Shown: positions 1,466 to 22,788, counted from the first letter of the stretch. The stretch: 64,000 nt of DNA from Clostridia bacterium (GCA_030527235.1 JAUNBL010000001.1:10294-74293); one strand, 5' to 3'. The notes: generated by a model not told the origin, from the letters alone. A program made the numbers and translations.

Positions 1466-1475
1466 CTATTATCTC

Positions 1476-2750: not shown

Positions 2751-2754
2751 TTAT

Positions 2755-3252
2755 TCACCCACCATCATATTCGTATAGTGTAACGTCGCAATCTTTTAGA
2801 GAGGTTTCAATCATTTTTGAAACCACATTCCAGTCGCCGCCGCCTCTTACACAACCAAGTCCATATGGAATTGCTACCGTATACCCCTTAAACTGGATAT
2901 TTACGTTTTCCAAACATCTTTTTAATGCATCATAGTTAGTATAACATTTTCCGTCATAGCCGAATTTATCTTGAGAGAACATGTTTACAATCACTCTATT
3001 AGAATTATTTGTATCTCCGACAACATTATCATCAATGTATACTATTTGTATCATGCCAAGAAGGGGAGAGGTGGGAAAATGTTTTGGATTATATTCGTCA
3101 TTATCGCACCATGACTTATAATAATCATATACAATCGGATACCTTTCCCTAACTTGTTTTGCCACTCCGGAACCCATAACTCCCTGACAATTTACCTGAT
3201 GCAAAATTACATCCGCATTACTCTCAAATATATTTCCTTTTATATGTTTCAT
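2755..3252 (-). CDS. Macro-domain protein (ADP-ribose binding or hydrolysing)
   Basis: The ORF track starts at TTG 3264. I prefer ATG 3252, which has GGAGG 5 nt upstream. MKHIKGNIFESNADVILHQVNCQGVMGSGVAKQV... and ...IPYGLGCVRGGGDW are macro-domain signatures. Confidence 0.8.
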   Translation of the reverse strand: MKHIKGNIFESNADVILHQVNCQGVMGSGVAKQVRERYPIVYDYYKSWCDNDEYNPKHFPTSPLLGMIQIVYIDDNVVGDTNNSNRVIVNMFSQDKFGYDGKCYTNYDALKRCLENVNIQFKGYTVAIPYGLGCVRGGGDWNVVSKMIETSLKDCDVTLYEYDGG

Positions 3253-3264
3253 CGTTGCCTCCAA

Positions 3265-3380: not shown

Positions 3381-6300
3381 TTGTATTTTACAAGAAACAC
3401 AACTGATTATGAAAGACATTCTGTTGCGTGGGATTTATTTGAGTATGGTCAACAAACATTAACATCACTCTCCTATCCTTCCTACTCTTTCGGAGTATCT
3501 TCTGCAAACTTTATGTCTATTGAAGACTTCGTTTCTTTCGTGAGACAGTTGGAACTTGGACAAAAGATTTATCTAAACAGTGACAAAACAATTCTCGAAC
3601 CAATCTTTATTGGCGTAGAGATTGACTTTGAAAATCTTGAAGCTTTGTCATTGCAGTTTAGTGATAAGTATAGTTCGTCAGATAGTGCGTTTAGGCTTGT
3701 TGATTTGCTTGACCAAAGCATCTCCGTGGGTAAAACCGTAAATTCAAATAAGCTTACCTATTCTTCTTTCGTAGATAGTGGTGCGTCAAGCAAGGTAAAA
3801 GAATTTATGGACTCCGCCTTAGATGTGGCAAAGAACGCAATATTGTCAAGCAGCGGTCAGGGTGTTGTATGGGACAACACTGGTTTGCATTTAAGAAAGT
3901 ATATTGACACCAACAACACAGACTTAGGATATGAAGACGAACAAATCTGGATGATAAACAACAGCATCGTATTCACTGATGATAATTGGCAGACTGCTAA
4001 AATGGCGATTGGTAAAATCATTGATGAAAATATTGCTCGTTATCCAGAGACATCTGATACCACATTCAATGCGAATAAAGTTTATTACTATATAGATGAT
4101 GAGGGTGAGTATCAGGTATGGGAGGGTGACGCAGGAGATTGGGCTGATAGACCTTTGCTTTATGAAAAAGATATAACGGCCTATGGTATCGTAGCCCCTT
4201 ATATTGTTGGTACGCTTATTGCTGGTCAAAACTTAGTAATTGATACACCAGACGGTTCATTTAGAGTTGACTCGTCTGGTGTACATATTGACTCTATGAA
4301 GTTCTTTATTACGCACGATGGTGTCACAGAAGACACAGCACTTCAAGAAGAGTTGGATAAGCTGGCTGAGGAAGCAAATGATATAGCTCTTGATTTAGCA
4401 GGTGCTATAGAAAGTATTGGCGACCTTAACGATAAGGTTGAAAATACAGTAACAACATATTACCAATCTAAAATTCCAGATAACGCTCGTGAGGGTGATT
4501 TATGGTATGTTATTGATGACGAAATTGAAGATAGCCCCGAAGACAATGACGAGTATGAGATAGGAAAGTTATATAGATTTAATGGTGAGGGTTGGGACGA
4601 AATAACTGACGCTGCCGTTATTGAAGCTATAGAAAAGGCAAATAATGCACAGACAACAGCAGACGGTAAGATAACATCGTTCTATCAAAACTACATACCA
4701 CCCACCCCTTCTTTTGGTGATTTATGGTTTAATACCGCAGACTCTCAAACCGTAACAAGACCAATCGAGGTCGGAGATAATCTTGGCGGTATAACTTTAA
4801 CATTTGATACAAGAAAGATAATCACAAACGAAAGTAGCAAAGATATTATTACTGGCGGTGCGGGTTCGTCTGGTAGAATCAACCATATATTTGCATCAAA
4901 TAGGGGTGCTATGGGCAGAGGTGTTTGGTTAACCGCTAACATCAACGGGGTTTCCAAAATCATTTACAATGGAAGTTCGTGGTTGCTTCGAGCATTTACA
5001 GTACCTACAACATTCGGTGTAGTAACCGAGGTCACAAAAGACAGTGCGTTCTACGGGCGTATATATGGCACATTTACTAACAACTACTTAACAAAAAAAT
5101 GGTATAGATATAATGGCACAACTTGGGTTCTTGTTGAGGATGGAGACATCAGTACCGTTAAAAATAATATCAATAATATCACACAAACTCTCGGACAGTA
5201 TATCACCCAAGAAGGCTATCTAACTGCAAACAAACTCAAGGGTGCTATTAGCACAGCATTAACTACAATGCAAAACGGTATCGGTAATGTTGTATTTGAC
5301 GAGGGTGGTTTGTGGTTGTTAAATCAGGCAACAAAAGAAACTGCCACAACTGCGGTATGGATTAATGAAAGAGGTATTTTATTCGGCACAGGAACCAAGG
5401 GTTATATAGAAGCCGAAGATGGTGATGACAACGCTTGGACTTGGACTACGGCCATAGGACATGATGGTATTATTGCGGATGCTATGGCTACAAAAACATT
5501 AAGTGCATTTACTATTAATGGTGGCTCTATCAATATTGGTAATGGGAGGTTTGTCGTAGATAGCAATGGTAATCTCACAGCGCGGTCTGGTACATTCAGC
5601 GGTACACTTGACGCAGCAACAATCAGTGGTGATATAAAATCCAACACAGGTTCTGACTCTTGGATACTTGGTTGCGGTATTAGTATTGGTGATAACCCGA
5701 CAAATAGTTCAGGTAATTTCTATGTCGATACAGATGGCAATGTTACTATGAAAGGTAATATAAATATGTCTGAGGGTAACATCACTTGGAGTAGTAGTAA
5801 TACACCGGTGCAGGTACAGTATAGTGCTGACGGTTCAAGCTGGCATACAACTTTCAAGACGACAGATTACTATGCAAGGTATAGCTACGATGGAGGCACA
5901 ACTTGGACATCCGCCATCCCTGTTAAGGGCAAAGATGGTGAAAAGGGCGAACAAGGTGAGCAAGGTGAGCGCGGCCCGAGAGGATATGCCGGTGCTGACG
6001 GTAGTGATGCAGAAGTTACTTTTGCAAATGTAAATTCTGCACTCGGTTTATTATTTAAGACATATTCGGGTGGAACACCAACAACCATATCTGACTCGTA
6101 CATATATTCCCCACAGGTAAAAGGCGGAGAATTCTATGGTGGAACATTTTATGCAGGAACGGGTACTGGATTTTCGCAAATGTCTTCTGCCGGTTTTAAT
6201 GTGTTTGATGAAAATGGTAATAAGAAAATTGGTCTTGGATGTTATAGTGGTAATTGGTCTTATCCATATCTATCGCTCGGTGTTGGTGCTGGTACCTCTG

Positions 6301-8351: not shown

Positions 8352-8525
8352 ATGAAGAACGAAATGATACAAAAACTTGGTGCGGTTATTAATGCACTAA
8401 ATAATGTTTATGTCAAAGGTGAACAGAACCTTGCTAACCTTAGCGGCAGCATTACTATATTAAAAGAAGTTGCTGAGCAACTTAATATTTACGAGGTTGA
8501 AGAAAAATCAACCAACAAAGAGTAG
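8352..8525 (+). CDS. Small phage protein (57 aa)
   Basis: Own translation gives MKNEMIQKLGAVINALNNVYVKGEQNLANLSGSITILKEVAEQLNIYEVEEKSTNKE. AAGGAGAG lies upstream. It is below the ORF-track cutoff and fills an otherwise empty gap. Confidence 0.5.
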   Translation: MKNEMIQKLGAVINALNNVYVKGEQNLANLSGSITILKEVAEQLNIYEVEEKSTNKE

Positions 8526-8544
8526 AAAGTAAAGAGGTGGTTTA

Positions 8545-10047
8545 ATGGCTTTTAACGGATGCTATTTCAGCTTTGACGGAATACCTTGTACAGAGTATGG
8601 TCTTATGCTATATGACATCGGTACAAAGAGTTCTGACACAACAACAGATTTATCTGTTAATACAGAAATAGTTGAAGATAGGATTGCACGAAGATACACG
8701 CCTTTACATTATGGAACAATAACCAATGAACCGCTTGAATTTACAATGACATTCGGTGCAGATATAAACGCAATTGATAAAGGTGAGTATCTGGACAGAT
8801 GGGATTTGGAAACGATAGCTCGATGGCTAACTGCGCACAATAAATATAAATGGCTTGAGATAACACAGCCTGATATGGAGATGTTTAGATATAAATGTTT
8901 TATCACTGACTTAAAGCATATTGATGTTGCAAATCTTCCTTGGGCTTTTAGCTGTAAAGTTATTTGCGACTCCCCGTTTGCATATCAGTATCCAGAAGTA
9001 TTCAGGTATGTTGTGAATGGCACAACAGAAGTTGAGCTATTAAATAAGAGTTCTTATCGTGGGTTTTATAAACCTAAGATGGTACTATTTTTACCAAGAG
9101 GCGGTTCGGTTGATGTTAGCTTGTTAGAAACTGCATTGACACACGGATATGACGATAAACTTCTTAGAGATATAGACCATTACCCATTATTTGTTTTAGA
9201 CCACGGCGGTGGGTATAACTATTTTTCACTTAAAGAAAGTACAACTAATATCAGGAAGACAATATATGCAAGCCTGCAAGAACAATCAATGAGTCTTGTT
9301 TTCAGTGCCGGTATGGCTCTTGTGGAAACTATGGGTTTAGAAGAACACAATATGACCTTATCGGTAAGCGGAGACATAACAAGGATAATGACGCTTACAA
9401 CACCAAACCTGTCTGCTAAATTAAAGAATCAAATAAAAGCTAATATGACAAATCTATGTGAACTCATAATGAATGCCACAGGAGTTCACTGGCTTGATGG
9501 GTACTTGCACGAATATGACGACAGACTACTTTCAGATATGTATGTAACATATCCGAATATGTCTCTTGTTTCAATGTGCGACAAGGTATATATGAAGTTC
9601 TCGTTTGAACCCGAAGGACACAATATGTCACTTGATGGTAGCGCACCAGACTTTGTAACGACATCAATTATAAAGGATGCGGTTAGGTCTGTAATGCAGT
9701 TAGACTCAGGAACTTCATTTGAATACGAGGTTGTAATAGGATGTAATCCTATGGATACATCATTAAATTCATCTGAGGTATCATTAAATGTTATTGCGTA
9801 TATGTATCCAGAGGCAATCGAGACGAGCTTCTCAAACAGAACGGTACGAGATATACACACCAAGAGTGCTCTTGCTGTTACATCACAGAGTAGGCTCAAC
9901 ACTTCTGTCACAGAAGAAATAGAGATGTATTATGGACTTGGACATTTCGATAGGAATTATCTATATTATTGGGATACATATACTATCGAAGATATGTCGG
10001 CAGAAATTACCGTTAGGTCGCAAGGCGGCTCTGTAGATAATAACTAA
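8545..10047 (+). CDS. Phage tail/baseplate-associated protein (Dit-like N-terminus?)
   Basis: 500 aa with an RBS (AGAGGTGG). The N-terminus MAFNGCYFSFDGIPCTEYGLMLYDIG resembles phage tail-family proteins. The assignment is weak. Confidence 0.45.
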   Translation: MAFNGCYFSFDGIPCTEYGLMLYDIGTKSSDTTTDLSVNTEIVEDRIARRYTPLHYGTITNEPLEFTMTFGADINAIDKGEYLDRWDLETIARWLTAHNKYKWLEITQPDMEMFRYKCFITDLKHIDVANLPWAFSCKVICDSPFAYQYPEVFRYVVNGTTEVELLNKSSYRGFYKPKMVLFLPRGGSVDVSLLETALTHGYDDKLLRDIDHYPLFVLDHGGGYNYFSLKESTTNIRKTIYASLQEQSMSLVFSAGMALVETMGLEEHNMTLSVSGDITRIMTLTTPNLSAKLKNQIKANMTNLCELIMNATGVHWLDGYLHEYDDRLLSDMYVTYPNMSLVSMCDKVYMKFSFEPEGHNMSLDGSAPDFVTTSIIKDAVRSVMQLDSGTSFEYEVVIGCNPMDTSLNSSEVSLNVIAYMYPEAIETSFSNRTVRDIHTKSALAVTSQSRLNTSVTEEIEMYYGLGHFDRNYLYYWDTYTIEDMSAEITVRSQGGSVDNN

Positions 10048-10068
10048 AAGAATTGGAGGAACAAATAA

Positions 10069-11586
10069 ATGAGTTATACACCAAACATAAATTTGATGCT
10101 TACTCCCGAAGATGATACCAGCACAACATTCAAGCAGTGGCGTACTGGTATGAACGGCGAGGATAGCGATTCTAACATGATGAAAATTGATGAAGCTGTC
10201 GGTGCTCTTGATGAACACTGCGATAGACTTCAGGCTAAAGTCGATACCGTATCGAGCAAGGTATTCGGCGAGTCCCCTCAGACTTGGGCAGATGTCCAAA
10301 CTATTGTTCGTAGCGGTGCAGCGTCTCAATATTTTGATGTTGGAGACCAGTTCATCGTTGAGAGATTAACAGGCGTAACAGCTTCTGTGGGAGAAAGTGA
10401 GGGCATATCTGCTGTGACCGTTGACTCAAACACATTTGTTGATGGTATGGGCGAGGTACACGCAGGTGATTATCTTTTCACATACGACGGCGTGTCTTGG
10501 AGAAATGAGGTTGGTGAAATAGTAAACATTGAAACGCTTGGTATTACATACACAGGCACGCCAACTGCCGGAGATAACATTACTGTTACAGAAGCCTCTA
10601 CACAATTAGCTTTCGATGTTATTGGCATTGACCATGACACTCCTGCTGACGCAAACCACACTCACAGTATGACATTACAACTCCACAACTTATGGTCAAG
10701 TACTATGACATATGATGCAGCCGAGGCTATGTTCGCAGTAGATGCAGAAACATATCCCGATGGTCTTCCCGCCGGAACTTATAACTTTACTTGGAATTAT
10801 GCGACCGGTAGTATGGTAAATGGTACCTATCAGTTTACTATTGAACAACCGATACCGATTGGCGGTCAGATTGTTATTGAAACAAACTCAAGCTCTACCG
10901 CCATCACCTCTTGTAAAATTAAAACATATGCAACTGCTGGTGCAACAAAAACTATCGAAACTAATATTGCAATTATAACGGGTACAGAAGGTACAAGTCT
11001 TGGCACGATATTAAGTACAACTTCTTCTGCGACAAATCTCAACTGTGCTCAGCGTATTATGTGGGGTTCAAACAACTGGAGTGAGTCCTCTCTTCGTCAG
11101 TGGTTAAATACAGATGCGGCAGCAAACTCTTGGTGGGAACCTAAGACTGTCTTTGATAGACCCGCAAACACTGATAGTGTTGGTTTCTTAAAAGATTTAG
11201 ACCCCGCATTCCTCGATGTTATTGGAGATGTGACAAAGACAACTCAATTGAGTGTTTCTGATGACTATGGTTTAGAGACATCTACTGAACGCTTCTTCTT
11301 ACTTTCAAGACCTGAAGTTTACGCGGGTACTGAAAGAAGTGCAGACGGAACAGATGGCACAGTATACGTATACTATGGCGCTGGCTATTCTGATTTGACC
11401 GCTCCGGGTACCGGTGCAGACTCAAATAGAATTAAATACAGAAATGGCAGTGCAACATATTGGTGGTTGCGTACTCCTCATTCTACCGTCGGTGGCCATG
11501 TTCGTAATGTCCACCCAACGGGCTCCTTGAACATCTACAATGCCAACAACAGTACCGGTGTGGCTCCGGCTTGCGTAATCGTGTAA
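10069..11586 (+). CDS. Tail fibre / receptor-binding protein, the DGR target (VR at the extreme C-terminus)
   Basis: 505 aa with a tail-fibre-like N-terminus, MSYTPNINLMLTPEDD..SN.MKIDEAV. The C-terminus ...YWWLRTPHSTVGGHVRNVHPTGSLNIYNANNSTGVAPACVIV contains the VR. Confidence 0.85.
   Translation: MSYTPNINLMLTPEDDTSTTFKQWRTGMNGEDSDSNMMKIDEAVGALDEHCDRLQAKVDTVSSKVFGESPQTWADVQTIVRSGAASQYFDVGDQFIVERLTGVTASVGESEGISAVTVDSNTFVDGMGEVHAGDYLFTYDGVSWRNEVGEIVNIETLGITYTGTPTAGDNITVTEASTQLAFDVIGIDHDTPADANHTHSMTLQLHNLWSSTMTYDAAEAMFAVDAETYPDGLPAGTYNFTWNYATGSMVNGTYQFTIEQPIPIGGQIVIETNSSSTAITSCKIKTYATAGATKTIETNIAIITGTEGTSLGTILSTTSSATNLNCAQRIMWGSNNWSESSLRQWLNTDAAANSWWEPKTVFDRPANTDSVGFLKDLDPAFLDVIGDVTKTTQLSVSDDYGLETSTERFFLLSRPEVYAGTERSADGTDGTVYVYYGAGYSDLTAPGTGADSNRIKYRNGSATYWWLRTPHSTVGGHVRNVHPTGSLNIYNANNSTGVAPACVIV
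11465..11570 (+). repeat. DGR variable repeat (VR)
   Basis: It aligns without gaps over 106 nt to 12235-12340. There are 14 mismatches, and at every one TR has A. The 3' end is the invariant GC-rich GGTGTGGCTCCGG. Confidence 0.9.
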
Positions 11587-11725
11587 TAATCCAGCCGACA
11601 GGGTGATTATTATAGATTATTTTACAATGGGTACACCCCTTATGGTTATGAGCGTAGGGAGCTGTTATGTAGGTGGTGTAGTCGCAGGTGTAAAACAATC
11701 ACAAAAATCATAGGAGGTATCAAAA

Positions 11726-12184
11726 ATGAGCGTACCAGAAGGTAAGAGAAAAATAGGCAAACTCACGATTGAGACTGAGGGTGAGAAGCTTTTGCAGTAT
11801 ATTATTGATGTTACAGTTAAATATTACCTACCTCCTACGCACGAAGACAACATATCGTCACAGAGTAAAATAGTTGAATATGCAAATGCTAAATGGTTTG
11901 CCGAATGTATGAGGTCTGAAATGTTATCGTGTCTTTCTAATATTCAAGCTGCAAATAAAATTGTAGTTCTTGACGAAGAAAGCTACCACGAAAGAAGGCT
12001 TTGTCAAACACAAGCAGAACGATGTGTTGAAAAGGTGTTAACTGCTTCTACACTTATGTATCGCAAAAAGCTAATTAAAAGCAAAAGGATTAAGTTTATA
12101 GGGCAACAGATTTATCATATAAAGCGTATGCTACAAAACTGGCGTAAATCTGATAAAGCCCGATATACAAACCGCGAGCAATAA
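11726..12184 (+). CDS. avd: DGR accessory variability determinant (Avd-like helical protein)
   Basis: A 152-aa basic helical protein lying between the target gene and TR. This is the canonical Avd position. The call rests on size, position and composition only. Confidence 0.65.
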   Translation: MSVPEGKRKIGKLTIETEGEKLLQYIIDVTVKYYLPPTHEDNISSQSKIVEYANAKWFAECMRSEMLSCLSNIQAANKIVVLDEESYHERRLCQTQAERCVEKVLTASTLMYRKKLIKSKRIKFIGQQIYHIKRMLQNWRKSDKARYTNREQ

Positions 12185-12234
12185 TATTTAGGGGTAGTCG
12201 TTGTAAGAAGTTCCGTGCTGTTTTGGGGTTCCCG

Positions 12235-12340
12235 GGTTGCGTACTCCTAATTCAACCAACGGTAACAATGTTCGTAATGTCAACCCAACGGGCAACTTGA
12301 ACAACAACAATGCCAACAACAGTAACGGTGTGGCTCCGGA
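12235..12340 (+). repeat. DGR template repeat (TR)
   Basis: Non-coding copy of the VR. In the VR frame it reads LRTPNSTNGNNVRNVNPTGNLNNNNANNSNGVAPD, which is rich in AAC/AAT codons. Confidence 0.9.
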
Positions 12341-12521
12341 TTGGGTGGAAAAGTAAGTAGTAGCACTATATGTGACGAAACCGAATACCCACGCAAGGAA
12401 TGACTATCCCTGCCGTTAAAGGTGAAACTGGTGCGTCGATGCAGTCTACTCAACCAACGGTAGTAGGTACTCGCTATACACGGCGCACAAACAAAAAAAT
12501 AACAATCGAAAGAGGTGCTTA

Positions 12522-13626
12522 ATGAACACTACAAGTGCACCTGCTGTTCGTGAAACAGCTTGTGACTTTGAAAGTCTATATAACGCTATGAATGTTTGCA
12601 AAGGAGATGTTATGTGGAAAGACAGCGTTGCTGGCTGGGTTAAGAACGGAATAATCAATTGTGCCAAGCTTGAGGAACAATTAAATACTGGCACATACTC
12701 AATAGACGAGTATTCACGATTTACGATATTTGAACCGAAAAAGCGCGATATTGTAAGTACTCGTTTCAAAGACAGGGTGTTTCAAAGAAGTCTTTGTGAT
12801 ACCTATCTAACAAAACAAATCACAAAATCATTTATATATGATAATGGTGCTTGTCTTGAAGACAAAGGGACGGAGTTTGCACGAAGAAGAATTATCGCAC
12901 ATATGCAAAAGTTCTACCGTAAACACGGTCGTAACGGGTATGTATTAAAGTGTGACATAACTAATTACTTTGGTTCTACTCCTCATAGCGTTGTTAAAGA
13001 TAAAGTGAAAATGTTATGTGATGATAAGTGGGCGTATTTAGAACTATGCAGAATCATCGATAGTTTTTGGAACGCCAGACAATCCAGATGTTGGAATGGG
13101 TTTGGGTTCGCAGGTGACACAACTGTGTCAGCTTGCAGTGTTAAACGATATCGATCACGGGCTAAAAGAGCGAAAGCGAATTAAACACTATGTTAGGTAT
13201 ATGGACGATTTAATACTTATTCACCAAGACAAAGAAGTATTGAAGGATTGTCTTAATTATATCAAAACCGAGATGGCTGATATGGGGTTAAAATTAAGTG
13301 AAAAGAAAACACAAATATTCCCTATCACTCAACCAATTCATTTCCTTGGATTTTCACTTCGTCTAACAGAGACAGGCAAAGTCGTTAAGAAAGTTCTGTC
13401 CAAGAAAGTATCGCACGAGCGTCGCAAATTAAAGCGTATGGTGGGTCTTGTTGAAAATGGGAAGATGACCCGCGAGAAGGTTGATAAGTGCTTTGAGTCT
13501 TGGTTGGCGCACGCCACGGCAGAGCCATCTCCTCAAAGGAAAGGAACACCTTTTCTTTGTAGGTCAGATGATTATTTCACTATAGAAAATATGAAACGAT
13601 TTTATAAAACGATATGGGAGGTTTAG
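12522..13626 (+). pseudogene. DGR reverse transcriptase, split by a +1 frameshift in a T5 run (13064-13068)
   Basis: The ORFs 12522-13184 and 13096-13626 overlap. The second frame is open from 13042 and reads ...GTPDNPDVGMGLGSQVTQLCQLAVLNDIDH...YVRYMDDLILI, containing the DGR-type GxxxSQ motif and YMDD. Removing one T fuses them as IIDSF-GTPDNPDVGMGLGSQ. Confidence 0.85.
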
Positions 13627-13627
13627 T

Positions 13628-13801
13628 ATGCAGTATTTATCACTTAAAGACCAGCTCTTAAAAGAGCGTCAAAAAAATGCAGCTCTTACTGCTGAAGCAG
13701 ATAAGAATACAGCAGATATAGATTACATCGCAATGATGTGTGATGTTGAACTTACCGTACCCGAAAACGAGGGTATGAATAACGAAACTGAGGAGGGTTA
13801 A
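13628..13801 (+). CDS. Small phage protein (57 aa)
   Basis: Own translation gives MQYLSLKDQLLKERQKNAALTAEADKNTADIDYIAMMCDVELTVPENEGMNNETEEG. It starts 2 nt after the RT stop and is below the ORF-track cutoff. Confidence 0.5.
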   Translation: MQYLSLKDQLLKERQKNAALTAEADKNTADIDYIAMMCDVELTVPENEGMNNETEEG

Positions 13802-13804
13802 TAA

Positions 13805-13954
13805 ATGGAACACGGTGCAAAGTTTTATAAGGTGAAAAACTACTATGACCGTGGTCTTTGGGATGAAACTCGTGTAGCTAATGCAGTTCTCAAAGGCTGG
13901 ATTACCGTAGATGAATACGAGGAAATCGTAGGCAAGAAATATGAAGAAGTATAA
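13805..13954 (+). CDS. XkdX-like small phage protein (49 aa)
   Basis: Own translation gives MEHGAKFYKVKNYYDRGLWDETRVANAVLKGWITVDEYEEIVGKKYEEV. The KGWIT..EY..I pattern matches XkdX-family proteins as I recall them. Confidence 0.6.
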   Translation: MEHGAKFYKVKNYYDRGLWDETRVANAVLKGWITVDEYEEIVGKKYEEV

Positions 13955-13968
13955 TAGGAGGAGATATA

Positions 13969-14187
13969 ATGGCAATTAGTGTTTATTATTACAAAGACGA
14001 GCCTACAGCTCCACACCGTACATTCTTATGTGATTCTGACGCAGATATAGATAATCTTCCAACACAAACGAAGAAGACTGCGGATTATCCCAACGGAACA
14101 CCTACCGGTTCTACTGCGTTGGTAGTGACATCTGATGGTGTTAGTGTGTGGATTTTGAATAACATAGGGAATTGGATAAAAATATAA
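13969..14187 (+). CDS. Phage protein, unknown function (72 aa)
   Basis: ORF with GGAGGAG upstream, co-oriented in the phage late operon. Confidence 0.5.
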   Translation: MAISVYYYKDEPTAPHRTFLCDSDADIDNLPTQTKKTADYPNGTPTGSTALVVTSDGVSVWILNNIGNWIKI

Positions 14188-14198
14188 GGAGGTAGCTT

Positions 14199-14996
14199 AT
14201 GATTGATTTTATTACATATGCGGCATCCGTTACAAAGGCTACCAAGAACGCGAAAAATTATACAGATAGCGTTATATCAATGCTGCCAAACGGTATCGTG
14301 TACAAAGGTGGTGTTAGTTATTTTTCAAGCCTTCCGTCAAATCCAGATATCGGAGATGCTTATATAATTAAATATACAGGGTCAGAAGGTACAAATCCTG
14401 ACGGCAGGGAGTATGTATGGGGCGAATATGACGGCACACCGCAATGGATTTTAATTTCGGGAGTATCAGATATAATAGATTCGAGCGGAGAATCAATAGT
14501 ATCAAACGGGATAGCGGTAATACCGGACGCTATGACAACGCTTCCGAGCGAACTCTTTGGAAAGACATTCAATACTGCCGAAAGTCTTATAGCCGCTGCA
14601 AATTCTGCGTTTAGTGCAGGACATATTAAAATGTCAAATGTGTACAGAGGCGGAATTAACACAAATACAATGCTGTTAAAAAATAACGGCGATTACTTTG
14701 TGGGGAATATCGAACTGTGGCTAAGCGTAGTTCCAAATACAAGCAACAGTGCTGTTTATATATTCGAGGCTATTTCAGTTACGGATGCGCCATATCTTTG
14801 GCAGTGTTATGCCTGTGCTGACGGAAGAAACACCGATTGGATAGTTTCACCCACACGAGCAGAACTTAAACTGCATACAGACAGCAATGTAACATCGGAA
14901 GAGGGAGCTCATAATTTGAGATATCATAACAATACTTTGGAATACTTTGACGGAACTGACTGGGTGGCTTTGTCTATTGCAAATTTATTTATTTAA
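14199..14996 (+). CDS. Phage protein, unknown function (265 aa; possibly fibre-associated)
   Basis: ORF with AAGGAGG upstream. It is the last gene before a strong terminator. Confidence 0.5.
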   Translation: MIDFITYAASVTKATKNAKNYTDSVISMLPNGIVYKGGVSYFSSLPSNPDIGDAYIIKYTGSEGTNPDGREYVWGEYDGTPQWILISGVSDIIDSSGESIVSNGIAVIPDAMTTLPSELFGKTFNTAESLIAAANSAFSAGHIKMSNVYRGGINTNTMLLKNNGDYFVGNIELWLSVVPNTSNSAVYIFEAISVTDAPYLWQCYACADGRNTDWIVSPTRAELKLHTDSNVTSEEGAHNLRYHNNTLEYFDGTDWVALSIANLFI

Positions 14997-15008
14997 TTAA
15001 TTAAATAT

Positions 15009-15037
15009 ACCGCCGCCATATTCGGGCGGCGGTTTTA
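15009..15037 (+). terminator. Rho-independent terminator of the tail/DGR operon
   Basis: ACCGCCGCC-atattcg-GGCGGCGGT followed by TTTT. Confidence 0.8.
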
Positions 15038-15055
15038 TGCTATGGAGGGATAGTT

Positions 15056-15397
15056 TTGAAAAACAAAAACAATAATCCCGTTTGTAAATTGCTAAATAAT
15101 ATCAAGAAAATGATTTGTGTGATATTAGAAAAGCGGGACAAAGAATATTCAAAAAGATTACTCACTCGAATCATAAATCACTCACTTTTTATGATGTGGG
15201 CATCGTATGCTCTTGCGTGGTTTGGGCGCACTGATATTGCAGAAACATTATCTAAAACAATTGTCACTTCGGTGATAGCGGTTGTGATTGGATATCTTAC
15301 TAAATCTGTTATCGAGAACATCAGTAAAAACACGACTACCTTTGGTAAAAATATCGAAATGGAACACAATATTAATAAAGATATGCGAGATTGTTAG
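15056..15397 (+). CDS. Putative holin / small membrane protein
   Basis: 113 aa, TTG start with GGAGGGA upstream. It has two hydrophobic segments (LFMMWASYALAWFG and VTSVIAVVIGYL) and sits at the head of the lysis cassette. Confidence 0.5.
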   Translation: MKNKNNNPVCKLLNNIKKMICVILEKRDKEYSKRLLTRIINHSLFMMWASYALAWFGRTDIAETLSKTIVTSVIAVVIGYLTKSVIENISKNTTTFGKNIEMEHNINKDMRDC

Positions 15398-15408
15398 GAG
15401 GTTATAAA

Positions 15409-15573
15409 ATGGATAACAAACCTGATGTATGGGCACAGGAAGCTGTAGAATGGGCAGTCGAGAACAAGGTTTTGTTTGGAGATGAGAACGGCAATTATAA
15501 GTTGCATGATACTTGTACGAGACAGGAAATGTTAGTGTTTCTTGACAGAGTATACAATCTGATTAAAGCCTGA
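15409..15573 (+). CDS. Free-standing cell-wall-binding (SLH-like) domain protein, a paralogue of the endolysin C-terminus
   Basis: ATG 15409 with TAGGAGG upstream. MDNKPDVWAQEAVEWAVENKVLFGDENGNYKLHDTCTRQEMLVFLDRVYNLIKA aligns with endolysin residues DNVPDAWAETAVQNAIDNKIIFGDDTGDLKLHKNCTRQEMLVFLYRFYKNII. Confidence 0.6.
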   Translation: MDNKPDVWAQEAVEWAVENKVLFGDENGNYKLHDTCTRQEMLVFLDRVYNLIKA

Positions 15574-15607
15574 TTCTCTGTATTTTTTTAAAGGAGGATG
15601 TGTTAGT

Positions 15608-16516
15608 ATGACAGCACAAAAAATAATTAATATGGCAGCATCTCAGATTGGAACAAAGGAGTCCCCTGCAAATTCGAACAACGTTAAGTATAATACCGAC
15701 TATTATGGTCGGGCAGTAAGTGGCTCAAGTTACCCTTGGTGTTGTGCATTTATATGGTGGATATTTAATGCTTGCGGCGCTTCCGAGCTTTTTTATGGTG
15801 GAAAAAAAACCGCATATTGTCCTACTGTCGAAAGCTATTACAAGGCAAATGGAATGTGGTTTAATTCCGGCAAGCCGGGGGATTTGGTTTTATTTGACTT
15901 TACCGGCAAGGGAATTTCCGGACATATTGGAATTGTAGAATCCGCTAATTCCGATGGTTCATATACAACAATTGAAGGTAACACCGGTTCCGGAAATGAT
16001 GCCAATGGCGGAACAGTAATGAGAAGGACTCGTTATAAATCTTCTATTCGTGGATTTGCGAGACCTAACTATGCGAGTGATGTTATTCAGTTTACTGAGA
16101 CATCTGTAAACCTCATAGGTACAATAAATGCAAGCGTTTTAAATATAAGAAAACAACCGTCAACGGCATCTGAAATTATCGGCAAACACAGCAATGGAGA
16201 TGTTGTTAATATAACGGCAAAAACAGATAATGGTTGGTACAGAGTTGATTATCCCAATATTGGCACAGGTTATCTGTATGCCGATTATGTATCAGTGGCA
16301 GAGCCGACACCCGAACCTGTTGTGCAACAACCTTATACTCCACCGACCGAAGAAAAAGATAACGTTCCCGACGCTTGGGCGGAAACTGCCGTTCAGAATG
16401 CTATTGATAATAAAATCATTTTCGGTGATGATACCGGGGATTTAAAATTACATAAAAATTGTACAAGACAGGAGATGCTTGTATTCTTATATAGGTTTTA
16501 TAAAAACATAATTTAG
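15608..16516 (+). CDS. Endolysin: CHAP amidase/peptidase + SH3-like + SLH-like wall-binding domain
   Basis: 302 aa. The CHAP Cys is in YPWCCAFIWW and the His in GHIGIV. The middle segment NASVLNIRKQPS...GWYRV is SH3b-like. The C-terminus is an SLH-like module. Confidence 0.85.
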   Translation: MTAQKIINMAASQIGTKESPANSNNVKYNTDYYGRAVSGSSYPWCCAFIWWIFNACGASELFYGGKKTAYCPTVESYYKANGMWFNSGKPGDLVLFDFTGKGISGHIGIVESANSDGSYTTIEGNTGSGNDANGGTVMRRTRYKSSIRGFARPNYASDVIQFTETSVNLIGTINASVLNIRKQPSTASEIIGKHSNGDVVNITAKTDNGWYRVDYPNIGTGYLYADYVSVAEPTPEPVVQQPYTPPTEEKDNVPDAWAETAVQNAIDNKIIFGDDTGDLKLHKNCTRQEMLVFLYRFYKNII

Positions 16517-16531
16517 TTAGGTGGTGCATAT

Positions 16532-16927
16532 ATGAACAACATTGTAAACTTTATTTCTGCATATTGGATTGAGATTGTAAGTTGCATACTGATAGTTATT
16601 GGGACAATTACCGGAATTGTAAAATTCCTTTCACAACCTAAAGCTAAACAGATTGAACAAATCAAGGCTTGGTTGCTCGGTGCAGTAACCCTTGCCGAAG
16701 CCGAATTTGGCAGCGGCACAGGAAAAATAAAGCTTTCTGTTGTCTACGACGCTTTTGTTGAAAAGTTTCCGTGGATTGCGAAATTTCTTTCATTTACAAT
16801 TTTCGGCAAATATGTTGACGAAGCTTTGGTAGAAATGAGAAAGCTGTTATCGACAAATGAGGCTGTTGCTGCGATTGTTGAATCTCCGGACAGCATTAAA
16901 ACTGAAATCAACACTGAGGAGGGTTAA
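16532..16927 (+). CDS. Holin-like protein (LL-H-type?)
   Basis: 131 aa with an N-terminal TM segment (IEIVSCILIVIGTITGIV), lying next to the endolysin. Confidence 0.5.
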   Translation: MNNIVNFISAYWIEIVSCILIVIGTITGIVKFLSQPKAKQIEQIKAWLLGAVTLAEAEFGSGTGKIKLSVVYDAFVEKFPWIAKFLSFTIFGKYVDEALVEMRKLLSTNEAVAAIVESPDSIKTEINTEEG

Positions 16928-16930
16928 TCA

Positions 16931-17317
16931 ATGACTGAGAATGAAAAAGTATTACTGGAATGCGAGCAAAGGTCTAAGTCTAACTCCCACAGAATTGACG
17001 GTCTCGAAAAAGATATGAAGGAAATGAAAGAAGATAATAAAGCTATTTACAAAATTGCCACTTCGGTTGAAGTAATGGCAGAAAAGCTTGGAAATATTGA
17101 AGAAAAAGTTGACGAGACTAACCGCAAGGTTGACGAAACAGCTAAAGCTCAAAGAATTTCCGAGGATAGATTTTTGCAAAGAGTTGCAGATATAGAAGGT
17201 CAACCTGCAATTCAGCTTCAAAAGAATGTAAACGAGATTAAAGTTAAAGTGATTACAGCGATTATAACCTTTCTTGTAACAGGTGCGCTTGGCGCTTTGA
17301 TTTATTTTGCGAAATAA
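16931..17317 (+). CDS. XhlA-like coiled-coil protein with a C-terminal TM anchor
   Basis: 128 aa. MTENEKVLLECEQRSKSNSHRIDGLEKDMKEMKE... plus the C-terminal TM VITAIITFLVTGALGALIYF. This architecture is typical of XhlA in PBSX-type lysis cassettes. Confidence 0.55.
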   Translation: MTENEKVLLECEQRSKSNSHRIDGLEKDMKEMKEDNKAIYKIATSVEVMAEKLGNIEEKVDETNRKVDETAKAQRISEDRFLQRVADIEGQPAIQLQKNVNEIKVKVITAIITFLVTGALGALIYFAK

Positions 17318-17349
17318 TAAAACGAAAGCAATCCGAGTTTCGGTGTCGG

Positions 17350-17412
17350 TTATCGACGGACGATAACACGACGTTTCACAGTTCTTTGAACTGTTACTTT
17401 GGTTTTACCCAT
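17350..17412 (-). CDS. Micro-ORF A, 20 aa: MGKTKVTVQRTVKRRVIVRR
   Basis: GGAGGT, then 7 nt, then ATG. Its last 10 codons align to micro-ORF B with 8 identical residues, 6 of them encoded by codons differing only at the third position. Confidence 0.5.
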   Translation of the reverse strand: MGKTKVTVQRTVKRRVIVRR

Positions 17413-17549
17413 ACATAACACCTCCCTTCAATATACACCACCCTTGCCTTACGGCTCCGTTGTTTGGAACGGTGTGGGATGGTTGTGGTAGTTTACCACA
17501 CTGCATAGCAGTAAATATTGAAAGGAATAATTTTCTCGGATTGCTCTCA
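17413..17549 (-). promoter_or_regulatory. Structured 5' leader A (candidate cis-regulatory RNA)
   Basis: The closing helix pairs 17515-17525 with 17424-17434 and overlaps the SD. The internal hairpins at 17485-17499 and 17457-17472 have the same architecture as leader B, with compensatory changes. Confidence 0.45.
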
Positions 17550-17555
17550 AAGAGC

Positions 17556-17584
17556 AGTATATCATAAAAGTTTTATACATGCAA
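17556..17584 (-). promoter_or_regulatory. Promoter of unit A
   Basis: On the minus strand: TTGCAT-N17-TATACT, with a TG one base upstream of the -10 (extended -10). Confidence 0.5.
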
Positions 17585-17618
17585 GCATAAGATGAAAGCA
17601 ACCCTTTCACTACGCCGC

Positions 17619-17693
17619 TTACTTGCGAACAAATACACGGCGTTTAACGGTTACTCGAACCGTTTTCTTGATAGTCACAATGACCTTAGCCAC
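17619..17693 (-). CDS. Micro-ORF B, 24 aa: (M)AKVIVTIKKTVRVTVKRRVFVRK, GTG start
   Basis: GGAGGT, then 7 nt, then GTG. It is a paralogue of micro-ORF A, and differences between them are mostly synonymous. Confidence 0.5.
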   Translation of the reverse strand: MAKVIVTIKKTVRVTVKRRVFVRK

Positions 17694-17832
17694 AGGACAT
17701 ACCTCCTTTCAATATGCCACCCTTGACCATATAGGCTCCGTTTCGTGTGGAAACGGCGTGGGATGTGCTGTGCTTGTTAAGCACTTCTGTATGCAGAAAT
17801 ATTGAAAGATTTTTAGTGTTAGGGCTGCTTTC
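17694..17832 (-). promoter_or_regulatory. Structured 5' leader B (candidate cis-regulatory RNA)
   Basis: The closing helix pairs 17799-17809 with 17705-17715 and overlaps the SD. Internal hairpins lie at 17770-17784 (loop AAC) and 17738-17756. Confidence 0.45.
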
Positions 17833-17838
17833 TGATAC

Positions 17839-17867
17839 ATTATAACACAAAATTTTATCAAATGTAA
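17839..17867 (-). promoter_or_regulatory. Promoter of unit B
   Basis: On the minus strand: TTACAT-N17-TATAAT, preceded by TGT (extended -10, TGnTATAAT). Confidence 0.55.
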
Positions 17868-17888
17868 TTTTAAAAATGCAAAAAAAAT

Positions 17889-17924
17889 GGGACTGCCTAT
17901 GCAAAATAGGAGTCCCTGTTTTTT
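17889..17924. terminator. Bidirectional rho-independent terminator
   Basis: GGGACTGCCTAT-gcaaa-ATAGGAGTCCC, flanked by an A8 run upstream and a T6 run downstream. Confidence 0.6.
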
Positions 17925-17979
17925 ACGATTTTTAAGTATAAAATCTGTATTCTATTTTCAAAAATTCACATAATATATA

Positions 17980-18008
17980 TTGACAAATAATAGGGATGGT
18001 GGTACAAT
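17980..18008 (+). promoter_or_regulatory. Promoter of the TA pair
   Basis: TTGACA (17980-17985), 17-nt spacer, TACAAT (18003-18008). Confidence 0.55.
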
Positions 18009-18058
18009 ATATGTGTGAAGATTTAAGTAATCATAATAACTCGAAAGGAGATGTTGAT

Positions 18059-18226
18059 ATGCCGACAGCAGTAAATAAAATAGACATTGCATTAGCCGAA
18101 TTGTTAAGGAAAAATAAGGACAAAATCAAATCAATAACTCCTTCCAATCCTCCCATTTCTAAAGATGATGAATGGCGAGATGAAGATGAGTGGGATGATT
18201 TATATAAGGAGTTACAGGACAAATGA
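18059..18226 (+). CDS. Putative antitoxin (55 aa, acidic C-terminus)
   Basis: ATG 18059 with AAAGGAG 8 nt upstream: MPTAVNKIDIALAELLRKNKDK...DEWRDEDEWDDLYKELQDK. Its stop overlaps the toxin start (ATGA). Confidence 0.5.
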   Translation: MPTAVNKIDIALAELLRKNKDKIKSITPSNPPISKDDEWRDEDEWDDLYKELQDK

Positions 18227-18551
18227 GAGTTTGGGAGCTATGGTTTGCCGACTTTCCGTATGAAGAAGATAATACAATTGTTAAAAGCAGACCTGTTATC
18301 ATTCTCAACGTAGAGCCTTTAGAAGTATTGTCGGTTAAGGTTACATCACAGCAGTCGCGTAATAGTGATAAATATGATATGCCAATCGTTCATTGGCAGT
18401 ATGCGGGGTTAAAAAAGCCGTCGGTTGCTCGTATATCCAAAACAATGTTTCTGGACAAAAATAATTTCACCAAAAAATAGGAACTCCTCATGACGATGAC
18501 AAGATTGCAGTTCTTACGAAGTACACCGAATACTTAAAGGAAATTACATAA
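18223..18551 (+). pseudogene. MazF/PemK-like toxin interrupted by a frameshift at an A6 run
   Basis: MRVWELWFADFPYEEDNTIVKSRPVIILN...VKVTSQ...GLKKPSVARISKTMFLDKNNFTKK stops at 18478-18480. The -1 frame from A18477 continues IGTPHDDDKIAVLTKYTEYLKEIT, which restores a typical toxin of about 109 aa. Confidence 0.65.
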
Positions 18552-18676
18552 CAGTAAATCTTTCCGTTCCCTTTGAGAACGCATAGTCGAGGTTTTATCC
18601 GACGCAATTTATATAACGCTTGATGGCGCTGTATGTTGTGTCGGATTTTTTTGCGCCATCGGAAAGGAGAGTATTA

Positions 18677-19579
18677 TTGCCAACATTCAAGAACACGCCA
18701 AGAGGAACTTGGTTCTGCAAGTTTTACTACACCGATTGGACTGGCGAACGAAAGCAAAAGAAAAAAGAAGGCTTTGCTACCAAACGCGAAGCGCAAGAAT
18801 GGGAACGAGACTTCTTAAATAGGTGCAGTATCGAATCGGACATTACGTTTGAAAACTTCTGCATTAAGTATATGGAACATTGTAAGGCTCGCCTGAAGCC
18901 CACAACATACGAGGGTAAAAAGAATATGATAGAGACCAAATTACTGCCGTATTTTAAGCATATGAAGCTTAAAGATATAAAGGCAAGTACATTACGCACT
19001 TGGCAAGATAAATTGATTACAAGCCCAAATAACTACGCTGAGACGTATCTTAAAACTATTAATAATCAGATGTCCGCTATCTTAAATTTTGCTGTTAACA
19101 ATGACTACATTGGTTCAAACCCCATGCACAAGTGTGGCAGTATGGGAAAGAAACACGCAGAAGGCTTGCAGTTTTGGACTGTAGACGAATATAAGTTGTT
19201 CTATGAAGCTATTAAGGATAAGCCAATGTCCGCCGCTATCTTTCCATTGTTCTTTTACAGCGGTATGCGTGAGGGTGAAGTATTAGCCGTAACACTAAAT
19301 GACTTTGATTTTGAAAACAATACTGTTAATGTTAATAAGAGTTATGCCAAACACAACGGCGAGGATTTGATACAAACACCTAAAACTCCTAAGAGTAAGA
19401 GGATTATCACTTTACCTGAGCAGATAATGGAATTGATAAAAAAATATGCAGGCTCAATCTACGATTATCAGCCAACCGACAGATTGTTTGCCTGCACAAA
19501 ATATTATTTAGCTCACGAGATGAAGCGCGGATGCGAGAAGTCAGGCGTGAAGAAGATAAGAATCCATGACCTCAGACAC
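18677..19579 (+). pseudogene. Phage tyrosine integrase, 3' end replaced by the ICE insertion
   Basis: The probable start is TTG 18677, with AAAGGAGAG upstream. The N-terminus LPTFKNTPRGTWFCKFYYTDWTGERKQKKKEGFATKREAQEWE is arm-binding type. Integrase-like sequence runs through IRIHDLRH (ending at 19579). Downstream of that, the frame is antisense to the serine recombinase gene. Confidence 0.75.
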
Positions 19580-19609
19580 CCGTATGTCAAGCTAAAACTA
19601 AAAATTTTA

Positions 19610-21151
19610 TCAGCCTATTTCAGCCGCACTTTCGGCGCAAAAGTCCTTGATTTTCCACTCGATTTCAAGCCTATTATCGGGATATACACACACCTTTTCG
19701 ATAAGCATATCGGCAAGTGCCTGTGTTAAGGCGGTTTCTTTTTTTACGGCTTTCGCCGTTTGAATAATTTTTGCCCTGTTTTCAGTTTCAAGCTGTGAGC
19801 GTTCCTCCGATTTGCGGAATTTATCGTATTGAATACGGTAATTCTCGGTTTTTGTGTCATATTCCTGTTTTAAGCATTTATACTCATCAAGTGTAATTTC
19901 TTCTGTTAAAAGCTGCTCATACAAGAGTTGTTTTTTCTTTTGGCAAGCCGTTATCTGCTTTTCAATATCCGCAAGCTGCTCTGTTTTTATCTGTGCGGTA
20001 TCAACCTTTGAAACATCATCAATATTCAATATGCTTTCGGCTTGTTTTGAGATTATATCAAAAATTGCTTGGTTTAACGCACCTTCCGTAATTTCCGATT
20101 TATAGCAAGGCTCCGTTTCGTCATTCCTTGTATAGCTGCACCGATATATCGGTATTTTTTTCGGCACATAATCCATTGCGTGCTTGCAGCAGCCGCACTC
20201 AACCTTTCCACGAAGCGGATAGCTCCGCTGTTTTTTATTCGGCTGCTTAAATGTTCGCCGCACCGCATTAGCCTTTTCAAACAATTCCTCCGAAACAATC
20301 ACATCGTGGTGGTGCGGTATCTTTATCCACTCGCTTTCATCACGCTTGACCATTTTTGTGCTGCCCACATCTTGTACCCTCTGCTTCAGCATCACAAACA
20401 TCCCCATATATTGTTCGTTGACTATAATTCGGTTTATGGTGGAAATGCTCCAATATTTGCAGTTTGGAAAACGAGAGCCGTAGTTTCCTTTAATGCCCTT
20501 GTACTGTGCAGGAGTAGGGATATTTTTATCGAACAACAGCTTTGATATATATGCGGCAGACTTGCCATCGGCGGTAAGCTCGAATATCATTTTAACCGTT
20601 TCGGCGGCTTTCTCATCTATAATCTGCTCGCCGTTATCTCCGGCTTTATAGCCGTATGTATAATTCCCCGATTTATATTCGCCACGCCGCATTTTTGTAT
20701 ATTTGGCACTCTTTGTTTTAACCGATAAATCACGGCTGTAATACTCGTTTACGAGATATTTCACCGCAACGGCAATGCCACCCGTATCGCCCTTATGTTC
20801 GTCACTGTCATAGTTATCGCTGACCGATATAAACCGCACACCGAACAGAGGAAATATTTGTTGTGTAAAATACCCAACCTCTATACTGTTCCTCCCGAAA
20901 CGGGAGAAGTCCTTTACCAAAATGCAATTCACCTTATAAGCTTTAACATCATTCAAAAGCTGCTGAACGGCGGGGCGTTCAAGATTAGTCCCAGAATAGC
21001 CGTTGTCAACATATTCGATAATTTCAACATTATCGCCGAGAGCTTCCGCATATTTACGGAGCAAAAGCCTTTGTGATTCAATGCTCATACTCTCAACACG
21101 CTTATCTTCAACAGACAAACGCAGATATATGGCTATAATGTATCTATCCAT
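19610..21151 (-). CDS. Large serine recombinase (3rd of triplet)
   Basis: 513 aa. The N-terminal resolvase domain reads IAIYLRLSVEDK...SIESQR...YVDNGYSGTNLERPA...ILVKDFSRFGR. A recombinase and zinc-ribbon region and a coiled coil follow. Confidence 0.9.
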   Translation of the reverse strand: MDRYIIAIYLRLSVEDKRVESMSIESQRLLLRKYAEALGDNVEIIEYVDNGYSGTNLERPAVQQLLNDVKAYKVNCILVKDFSRFGRNSIEVGYFTQQIFPLFGVRFISVSDNYDSDEHKGDTGGIAVAVKYLVNEYYSRDLSVKTKSAKYTKMRRGEYKSGNYTYGYKAGDNGEQIIDEKAAETVKMIFELTADGKSAAYISKLLFDKNIPTPAQYKGIKGNYGSRFPNCKYWSISTINRIIVNEQYMGMFVMLKQRVQDVGSTKMVKRDESEWIKIPHHHDVIVSEELFEKANAVRRTFKQPNKKQRSYPLRGKVECGCCKHAMDYVPKKIPIYRCSYTRNDETEPCYKSEITEGALNQAIFDIISKQAESILNIDDVSKVDTAQIKTEQLADIEKQITACQKKKQLLYEQLLTEEITLDEYKCLKQEYDTKTENYRIQYDKFRKSEERSQLETENRAKIIQTAKAVKKETALTQALADMLIEKVCVYPDNRLEIEWKIKDFCAESAAEIG

Positions 21152-22787: not shown

Positions 22788-22788
22788 A

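Follow-up and report, generated by a model that had tools for sequence, protein, structure and literature searches.

Two kinds of described system stand close to the locus analysed here, a diversity-generating retroelement (DGR) in 64,000 nt of DNA from a Clostridia bacterium (GCA_030527235.1, JAUNBL010000001.1:10294-74293; this whole stretch is called the window, and positions are counted from its first nucleotide). In the DGR of phage BPP-1 (mtd-avd-TR-brt, where TR is the template repeat and brt encodes the reverse transcriptase, RT), a template:primer duplex between TR and the spacer (TR:Sp) positions the priming adenosine (bioRxiv 10.1101/2023.10.23.563531), and a hairpin or cruciform is needed for efficient retrohoming (Guo et al., PMC3240598). 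Phage DGRs generally have such stems, with 4-nt loops reading 5'-GRNA, 4-34 bp past the variable repeat (VR) (PMC3240598). The RNA motif RT-10 lies between TR and brt in BPP-1, and it has been speculated that other RT motifs serve other DGRs (Weinberg et al. 2017, PMC5737381). Among gut prophages, DGRs have been described whose DUF6273 targets have the variable region at the C-terminus of this domain (PMC11792537, PMC10743442).

The overall best explanation of our results, to which we assign a probability of about 0.85, is that the window contains a canonical prophage DGR whose target was diversified in the past and which is now most likely silent. That the locus is a DGR is itself practically certain. 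A preliminary description of this DNA had concluded that the tip of a phage tail fibre was diversified by a DGR at least in the past, and rightly so: the differences between TR and VR lie only on adenines, and all the parts that it named are present. The target gene and the two repeats are laid out as follows.

10069-11586, plus strand: DGR target gene, an open reading frame (ORF) of 505 aa (MDO4562220.1), starting with a strand and a long helix, followed by beta domains in the centre and DUF6273 at the C-terminus
11465-11556, plus strand: mutagenised part of VR, encoding residues 467-497, with 13 adenine-templated substitutions relative to TR
11557-11583, plus strand: initiation of mutagenic homing (IMH) region, with a GC-rich core GGTGTGGCTCCGG (11557-11569) identical to TR, then CTTGCGTAATCGTG, differing from the ATTGGGTGG of TR
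12235-12339, plus strand: TR, containing 34 adenines; read in the frame of VR, it has 14 AAY codons
12327-12348, plus strand: IMH* at the TR 3' end, GGTGTGGCTCCGG followed by ATTGGGTGG; TTGGGTGG (12341-12348) is one strand of the predicted TR:spacer duplex

Compared base by base, TR (12235-12340) and VR (11465-11570) align over 106 nt at an offset of 770, without gaps and with 14 mismatches, all of them with A in TR and C, G or T in VR, and none of the C, G or T positions of TR differ. Given 35 adenines among the 106 nt of TR, the chance that all 14 mismatches fall on A is 2.2e-8 (hypergeometric). A repeat search of the window independently returned the pair as a direct repeat of 112 nt with 87% identity (11465-11576 and 12235-12346). 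When each A of TR was replaced by N, the resulting pattern had exactly two matches in the window, TR and VR themselves, and none in 100 shuffles, indicating that the window contains a single VR; likewise, we found in the window no second RT able to complement this one and no second target that could be co-diversified. VR corresponds to residues 467-501 of the 505-aa ORF (10069-11586), within its last 39 codons, and 13 of the 14 changes hit codon position 1 or 2. No substitution of a TR adenine can produce a stop codon, and about 7.5e18 peptides are reachable from TR.

Differences confined to the adenines of TR are a mark by which DGRs are recognised, and the preliminary description had reported precisely this ungapped alignment, together with the peptides encoded by both repeats and the position of VR at the extreme C-terminus. 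Programmatic re-alignment and translation returned the same result, and the mismatches at non-adenine positions of TR that it had named as a reason to abandon the DGR were absent within the 106 nt. An ordinary duplication of the 3' end of the gene that simply drifted, with no retroelement at work, accounts for the existence of a repeat and for nothing beyond it; it would have to place all in-repeat differences on TR adenines by chance (p 2e-8) and to do so again in independent relatives, including identical TRs with different VRs, and it is unconnected with the Avd, RT and structured spacer that adjoin the repeat. We consider that this explanation has effectively been refuted already.

At their 3' ends, TR and VR diverge in the manner of IMH* and IMH. 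The preliminary description had pointed to an invariant, GC-rich, IMH-like stretch closing both repeats, which is GGTGTGGCTCCGG, identical in the two copies and followed by CTTGCGTAATCG in VR and ATTGGGTGG in TR. The same TR-against-VR difference, GATTGGGTGG against GCTTGCGTAATCG, recurs in the related loci L002 and L006, and also, by eye, in L001, despite an indel. The fourteenth mismatch lies at this boundary, where TR has A12340 (GAT, Asp) and VR has C11570 (GCT, Ala). The identical difference is present in all three relatives that could be read at this place, namely L002 and L006 (and L001 by eye, where the indel disturbs the ungapped comparison), and Ala occupies the position in 69 of 71 target homologues, indicating that it is a fixed difference between IMH* and IMH and not a product of mutagenesis. 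Thus the earlier count of 14 mismatches at adenines is correct as a count, but the mutagenic substitutions among them number 13, and a terminal A-to-N mismatch adjoining the IMH should be excluded from counts of mutagenesis. Past the 106 nt, six further positions remain similar; a single one differs, at a base other than adenine (G12344 against C11574), which is to be expected at a place where IMH* and IMH part.

Immediately beyond VR, we found a hairpin that begins at the stop codon of the target.

11584-11612, plus strand: inverted repeat (hairpin or cruciform) starting at the target stop codon, with outer stem TAATAATC/GATTATTA

Its inner stem is short and GC-rich (A-G-C-C/G-G-G-T), with one G.G mismatch (11594/11603), and its loop, GACA (11597-11600), fits the GRNA consensus, just as its position fits the range of 4-34 bp; a GRNA-loop hairpin shortly downstream of VR is therefore present, as in other phage DGRs. 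The DNA fold has a free energy of -6.0 kcal/mol (z -3.9). In the relatives the inner stem is perfect, CACCC(C)/(G)GGGTG, with C where the window has G11594 and with -9 to -9.8 kcal/mol, and the mismatch in the window may be a second, milder sign of decay, next to the interruption of the RT gene described below.

The target family varies at the same codons. Among 71 homologues, the entropy is approximately 3 bits at positions 471, 474, 476, 477, 480, 482 and 486, and also at 488-491, 493, 494 and 496, all of which correspond to Asn codons of TR; at the scaffold residues interspersed with them (R468, V478, R479, G485, A492 and P500) it approaches zero. Hypervariability across the family thus sits exactly at the adenine-templated codons.

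The closest homologues of the target, Avd and RT come from uncultured Clostridia and from gut metagenome contigs, with 82% identity for the nearest RT and 75% for the nearest target; a megablast search against 50,697 phage records returned no close nucleotide relative of the whole cassette. As the preliminary description had proposed in calling the order target-avd-TR-RT canonical, the relatives with an intact RT (L001-L009 and L092-L095) share one arrangement, consisting of a DUF6273 target, a gene of ~153 aa, TR, spacer, a 367-aa RT and XkdX. Mismatches between their TR and VR fall on adenines in 18 of 18 cases for L002 and in 17 of 19 for L006. Moreover, the 106-nt TR is identical in L002 and L092 while their VRs differ from each other, and in both VRs 18 of 18 changes lie on adenines, indicating that the clade is active in nature and has undergone repeated mutagenic homing. 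In L001 (4950-5062 against 5714-5826), the ungapped comparison of TR and VR loses register after ~70 nt and shows 37 mismatches, many at non-adenine positions, which suggests a short indel between the two repeats, unusual for a DGR pair.

The RT gene of the window, unlike those of the relatives, is split between two reading frames.

12522-13067, plus strand: 5' part of the RT, frame 0, residues 1-182, comprising the fingers and the first catalytic Asp, D145
13064-13068, plus strand: run of five T (T5) with a single-base insertion, the window reading GAT AGT TTT T GGA
13069-13626, plus strand: 3' part of the RT, frame +1, residues 183-367, comprising the LGSQVTQ motif, the YMDD box and the thumb (Pfam RVT_1, E 4.2e-14)

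The frame-0 ORF continues past the junction in the wrong frame and stops at 13184 (220 aa, MDO4562222.1, annotated as 'hypothetical'), and frame +1 is open from 13042 to 13626 and annotated from an internal ATG at 13096 (176 aa, MDO4562223.1); the contig of the metagenome-assembled genome (MAG) at NCBI (154,953 nt, 'Clostridia bacterium') thus lists the halves as separate proteins. Their matches to family models are consecutive, covering positions 104-273 and 277-422 of PHROG 1423, and 35-157 and 176-299 of TIGR04416. Removal of one T from 13064-13068, as a conceptual repair, yields a protein of 367 aa, which is 79-82% identical to its ten closest homologues, all of them intact single ORFs of 365-367 aa. 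It is collinear and gap-free with five aligned homologues, each of 367 aa, and keeps every column that is invariant among 12 homologues. At the junction, the relatives read GAT AGC TTC GGC, GAT AGC TTT AGC or GAC AGT TTC GGC in one frame (D-S-F-G/S), without the extra T, and no split homologue of this kind was found among the best 120 RT matches.

We examined the repaired protein for the features of DGR RTs. Its best relative in the Protein Data Bank (PDB) is a DGR RT, 8ub7_A (E 7.4e-24), identified as the bRT of the BPP-1 DGR by the residue numbering D138, I181, G182, Q187, D215 and D216 (bioRxiv 10.1101/2023.10.23.563531, Handa et al.); D145, L194, G195, Q200, D228 and D229 of the window RT align with these residues in that order. 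Motif 4, for which the signature is [LIV]GxxxSQ, reads LGSQVTQ, where the usual Ser is replaced by a Thr that does not vary within the clade, and the only Pfam assignment is RVT_1. By its motifs, then, this appears to be an RT of the DGR clade, with a YxDD box and a Ser-to-Thr variant of motif 4, and not the RT-like ORF without DGR-RT motifs that the preliminary description had named as a possible refutation. Its claim of an RT therefore stands as to type, with 8ub7 as the best relative, but not as to a single ORF, because one T splits the gene into two frames. The RT ORF is not intact, a matter that bears on the activity of a DGR and is not needed for its classification.

As D145 lies in the first frame and D228 and D229 in the second, neither fragment holds a full catalytic centre, and the copy is most likely unable to diversify its target now, judging from the consensus sequence; this would not apply if some members of the population lack the frameshift. 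We regard the frameshift as probably real and disabling. The opposite possibility is that the DGR is fully functional, the extra T being due to an error in sequencing or consensus calling or to a minority allele fixed by the assemblers. This would agree with a repaired RT that has exactly 367 aa, keeps its invariant columns and shows no other defect, as well as with the intact state of Avd, TR, spacer RNA and target. The same base, however, occurs in the NCBI MAG contig and in a separate k-mer assembly, in which a Logan contig from run SRR24915838 equals window 8414-19626 (11,213 nt) with 100% identity, including the T5 run; an assembler artefact is therefore ruled out. In addition, a run of five T is short for a systematic homopolymer error, and elsewhere in the window ORFs of up to 1743 aa are uninterrupted, which argues against an assembly generally ridden with indels. 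A functional DGR is, on balance, unlikely, although it deserves to be taken seriously.

Could the frameshift instead be regulatory, through programmed +1 ribosomal frameshifting on UUU-U or through on/off slippage in the T run? In favour of this, tRNA-Phe bound to UUU in the P site could shift by +1 onto the overlapping UUU, and both halves of the RT are otherwise undamaged. Yet no relative has a T run or a change of frame at this place, and the ten closest RTs are single ORFs of 365-367 aa; no stimulatory element was seen, though none was looked for. Five T's are too few for typical phase-variable tracts. Such regulation is thus highly improbable. The related idea that the frameshift acts as a reversible off-switch, which would keep hypermutation silent in the lysogen or phage population and allow rare reactivation, appears very unlikely.

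It is also conceivable that the two fragments, of 220 aa and 176 aa, act together as a split enzyme, as both ORFs are open and annotated as separate proteins. The first, however, ends in ~39 out-of-frame residues, and the second would start at the internal ATG at 13096, with no evident ribosome-binding site and with loss of the conserved FGTPDNPDVG; the catalytic Asp residues are divided between them, and the best 120 matches include no split homologue. We give this reading hardly any credence. Both the programmed-frameshift and the split-enzyme readings were rejected, since the relatives are all single-frame and without the T run.

The remaining parts of the element, beginning with the gene between target and TR, are those of a formerly diversifying and now probably silent DGR.

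11726-12184, plus strand: avd-like gene, 152 aa (MDO4562221.1), with a full-length match to PHROG 3206, 'Avd protein of DGR' (E 4.7e-8)

The AlphaFold2 (AF2) model of its product is a four-helix bundle, with a mean predicted local distance difference test (pLDDT) score of 87, and the best Foldseek matches are 2gsc and 2rld, followed by 4dwl, the Avd of the Bordetella phage DGR (TM scores of 0.77-0.81 normalised on target; PF05635/Avd family). Pfam and NCBIfam returned no match for this protein, even at E up to 10, and PF05635 went undetected, so that its identity was reached only through PHROGs and fold. The model thus places a predicted four-helix-bundle Avd next to TR, in support of the avd-like gene proposed in the preliminary description.

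Pfam PF19789 (DUF6273) covers aa 333-504 of the target (nt 11065-11580; E 1.2e-18, 67.9 bits against a cut-off of 23.5). The AF2 model of the full protein, built with 71 homologues as input, has a pLDDT of 90.3, and fold and profile comparisons with PDB agree on a single significant match, the N-terminal DUF6273 domain of 9qa6, an IgA peptidase of Thomasclavelia ramosa (PMC12402451). Foldseek matches in BFVD are DUF6273 proteins of uncultured gut Caudoviricetes, and neither sequence searches nor Foldseek returned Mtd. The gene before the target (8545-10047) encodes a DUF6558 'phage tail protein N-terminal domain', and those after it are XkdX, a holin-like XhlA gene and a CHAP/SH3 endolysin; one PHROG match is labelled 'Hoc-like head decoration' instead. 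From its gene position and weak family matches, the target is probably a tail-fibre or receptor-binding protein; the 'tail-fibre' label of the preliminary description fits this evidence as a putative assignment.

Between TR and the RT gene, comparative analysis detected a structured RNA.

12335-12490, plus strand: structured spacer RNA, with a predicted TR:spacer duplex, a short hairpin, a long-range helix and a nested hairpin

In this structure, TTGGGTGG at the TR 3' end (12341-12348) pairs with CCACGCAA in the spacer (12389-12396). A covariance model built from six lineages matched directly upstream of an RT in 22 loci, which belong to Clostridia, Saccharibacteria, Atopobiaceae and other MAGs; the 23rd match, in L038, is weak (E 0.0067), does not lie upstream of an RT and is probably spurious. 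In the alignment of 22 distinct sequences, pairing holds in 92% of cells, compensatory changes occur in 28 of 30 pairs, and the covariation is 0.605 as against 0.20 in shuffles (0 of 500 reach 0.605) and 0.06-0.12 when partners are slid by 1-3 columns, values that come from an alignment fitted to its own model, which favours the structure. The structure was seen by comparative analysis only, the single-sequence minimum free energy fold being uninformative (z +1.15). These data support a structured RNA pairing with the TR 3' end, to which a priming role may be ascribed by analogy; the helix would be the counterpart of the TR:Sp duplex of BPP-1.

The position of this RNA relative to TR is also conserved. 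In 11 of 12 loci with ~3.7 kb of upstream sequence, the 60 nt immediately 5' of the spacer motif are TR sequence, and the VRs of those 11 loci, 600-700 nt upstream, differ at 6-16 adenines and at no other base. These observations indicate that one structured template/primer RNA class may serve a broad clade of DGRs. In the clade of the window, the TR-RT spacer has good support as a structured RNA, one with a relative in the orphan Rfam motif RT-2. Its location directly 3' of TR in all checkable loci but one supports the speculation that RT motifs other than RT-10 are template/primer RNAs of DGRs.

Further observations concern the same RNA. An RT-2-like RNA lies directly 3' of TR in L012-L023, L033 and L058 (at about 3767-3984 in each), whose source MAGs are labelled Saccharibacteria, Atopobiaceae, Ornithomonoglobus, Christensenellaceae and others. 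A search with a conserved 28-nt word of the spacer returned only four viral contigs and one metagenome contig, all from sampled lineages or truncated. The metagenome contig L096 (8147-8241, minus strand) contains part of a TR and, of the spacer RNA, the 5' part alone, beyond which its sequence is unrelated; it resembles a truncated element left over from this DGR clade. Scanning 11400-13800 for promoters and terminators yielded no more sites than shuffles did.

The sequence data show the parts of the element and their conservation, its interrupted RT, and adenine-specific transfer in the past of this copy and in the present of its relatives. By analogy with BPP-1, a working copy would operate as follows. 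A transcript of the avd 3' end, TR and spacer would fold such that the TR 3' end pairs with the spacer; a complex of RT and Avd would prime cDNA from the spacer, copy TR and misincorporate opposite adenines; and the cDNA would replace VR in the final codons of the gene for the DUF6273 target, the direction of transfer being set by the IMH and by the GRNA-loop hairpin past the stop codon. The 14 AAY codons of TR would allow up to ~7.5e18 tip sequences and never a stop codon.

Several points weigh against a prophage DGR that worked in this way and was later silenced. The priming and retrohoming steps are inferred from BPP-1. The spacer matches Rfam RF03077 (RT-2) at 12343-12508 with 23.3 bits (E 0.001-0.005) and does not reach the gathering score of 40, nor do L012 (33.3 bits) and L013 (29.5 bits) at the same position. 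Foldseek searches of PDB and BFVD with the full-length target returned no C-type-lectin structure. The tail genes start at 3381, directly beside minus-strand NAD-synthase and DNA-ligase genes. As for the silencing, the state of the T5 run and the VR of the window are known from assembled consensus sequences alone, and the MAG and the Logan contig may share reads, leaving a systematic read error possible. Finally, the retention of all invariant columns in the repaired RT indicates that the lesion is either very recent or artefactual.

The phage-like block extends from the tail genes at 3381 to a tyrosine integrase (18620-19729). To its left, a minus-strand block (1-3264) contains a fragment of a NifS-like cysteine desulfurase, truncated by the start of the window, an unassigned ORF of 169 aa, a PP-loop protein of the NAD-synthase family (707-1465) and an ATP-dependent DNA ligase (1476-2750). 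Left of the tail genes, the window shows no head or packaging genes; the prophage may be truncated, or these minus-strand genes may be phage auxiliary genes. The lysis genes on one side and the integrase on the other flank a small gene at ~18223-18480 (plus strand; L011 9810-10067), which matches Pfam PemK_toxin weakly, and a full-length pemK RNA (Rfam RF02913; 62.5 bits, gathering 34.8) at 24894-24990 (minus strand) is the only above-threshold Rfam match in the window. A large serine recombinase (19610-21151, minus strand), with Resolvase, Recombinase and Zn_ribbon_recom domains, overlaps the end of the integrase gene and is followed by two further ORFs of similar size (21144-22787 and 22789-24396, minus strand); a second mobile element may therefore abut the prophage at 19610-24396. 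The 1743-aa ORF (26006-31237, minus strand) lies in a stretch of raised G+C content (0.47-0.54, compared with ~0.40 elsewhere). The Logan contig of SRR24915838, 12.4 kb in all, ends at window 8414, inside a small ORF (8352-8525), and this break of the k-mer assembly possibly results from variation or a repeat between tail genes.

The locus adds one DGR to the thousands catalogued, in a class already described, that of DUF6273 targets in prophages of gut Clostridia. The frameshift, the corrected count of mutagenic substitutions and the link to RT-2 are useful details and not surprises. DGR finders and annotation pipelines would list this locus either as an RT-bearing DGR or as two unrelated ORFs, leaving the interruption unflagged, and the presence of a DGR should not be equated with its activity.

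Compared with the BPP-1 DGR, the window has the same order of target, avd, TR, spacer and RT, with VR at the extreme C-terminus of a known or probable tail-associated protein of receptor-binding type. The two also share differences between TR and VR that are confined to adenines, an AAY-rich TR, a GC-rich IMH core followed by divergence of IMH and IMH*, and a GRNA-loop hairpin just past the stop codon (PMC3240598). Finally, both have an Avd that is, or is predicted to be, a four-helix bundle (4dwl), and the RT is homologous to bRT, with its catalytic residues aligned (8ub7). Unlike BPP-1, in which the target is Mtd, the target domain in the window is DUF6273; motif 4 of the RT is LGSQVTQ, with Thr and not Ser before Gln; Avd has 152 aa, as compared with 107 residues in 4dwl_D, and escapes Pfam PF05635; the outer stem of the hairpin is AT-rich; and the RT gene is frameshifted. 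The spacer is RT-2-like, whereas that of BPP-1 has been assigned to RT-10 (PMC5737381). With Rfam RF03077 (RT-2) it shares a location directly upstream of the RT gene, the conserved AGUAG...GAAA hairpin, the CAAGGA stretch and a hairpin within a long-range helix, but its score is 23.3 bits, those of the relatives are 29.5-33.3 and all remain below 40, so that the spacer RNA is at best a divergent relative of RT-2.

The DGRs of gut Firmicutes prophages, namely those of the Faecalibacterium phages Lelie, CP11, Roos and Pioen and of the 'tentaclin' phages nd4 and nd12, resemble the window in having a DUF6273 target with VR at the C-terminus of the domain and in belonging to prophages of gut Clostridia. 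In the 'tentaclin' phages, DUF6273 is N-terminal, whereas in the window it is C-terminal in a fibre-like protein of 505 aa; and, unlike these systems, the copy in the window has a broken RT. In kind, the DGR of the window is closest to these published DUF6273-targeting DGRs from prophages of gut Clostridia.

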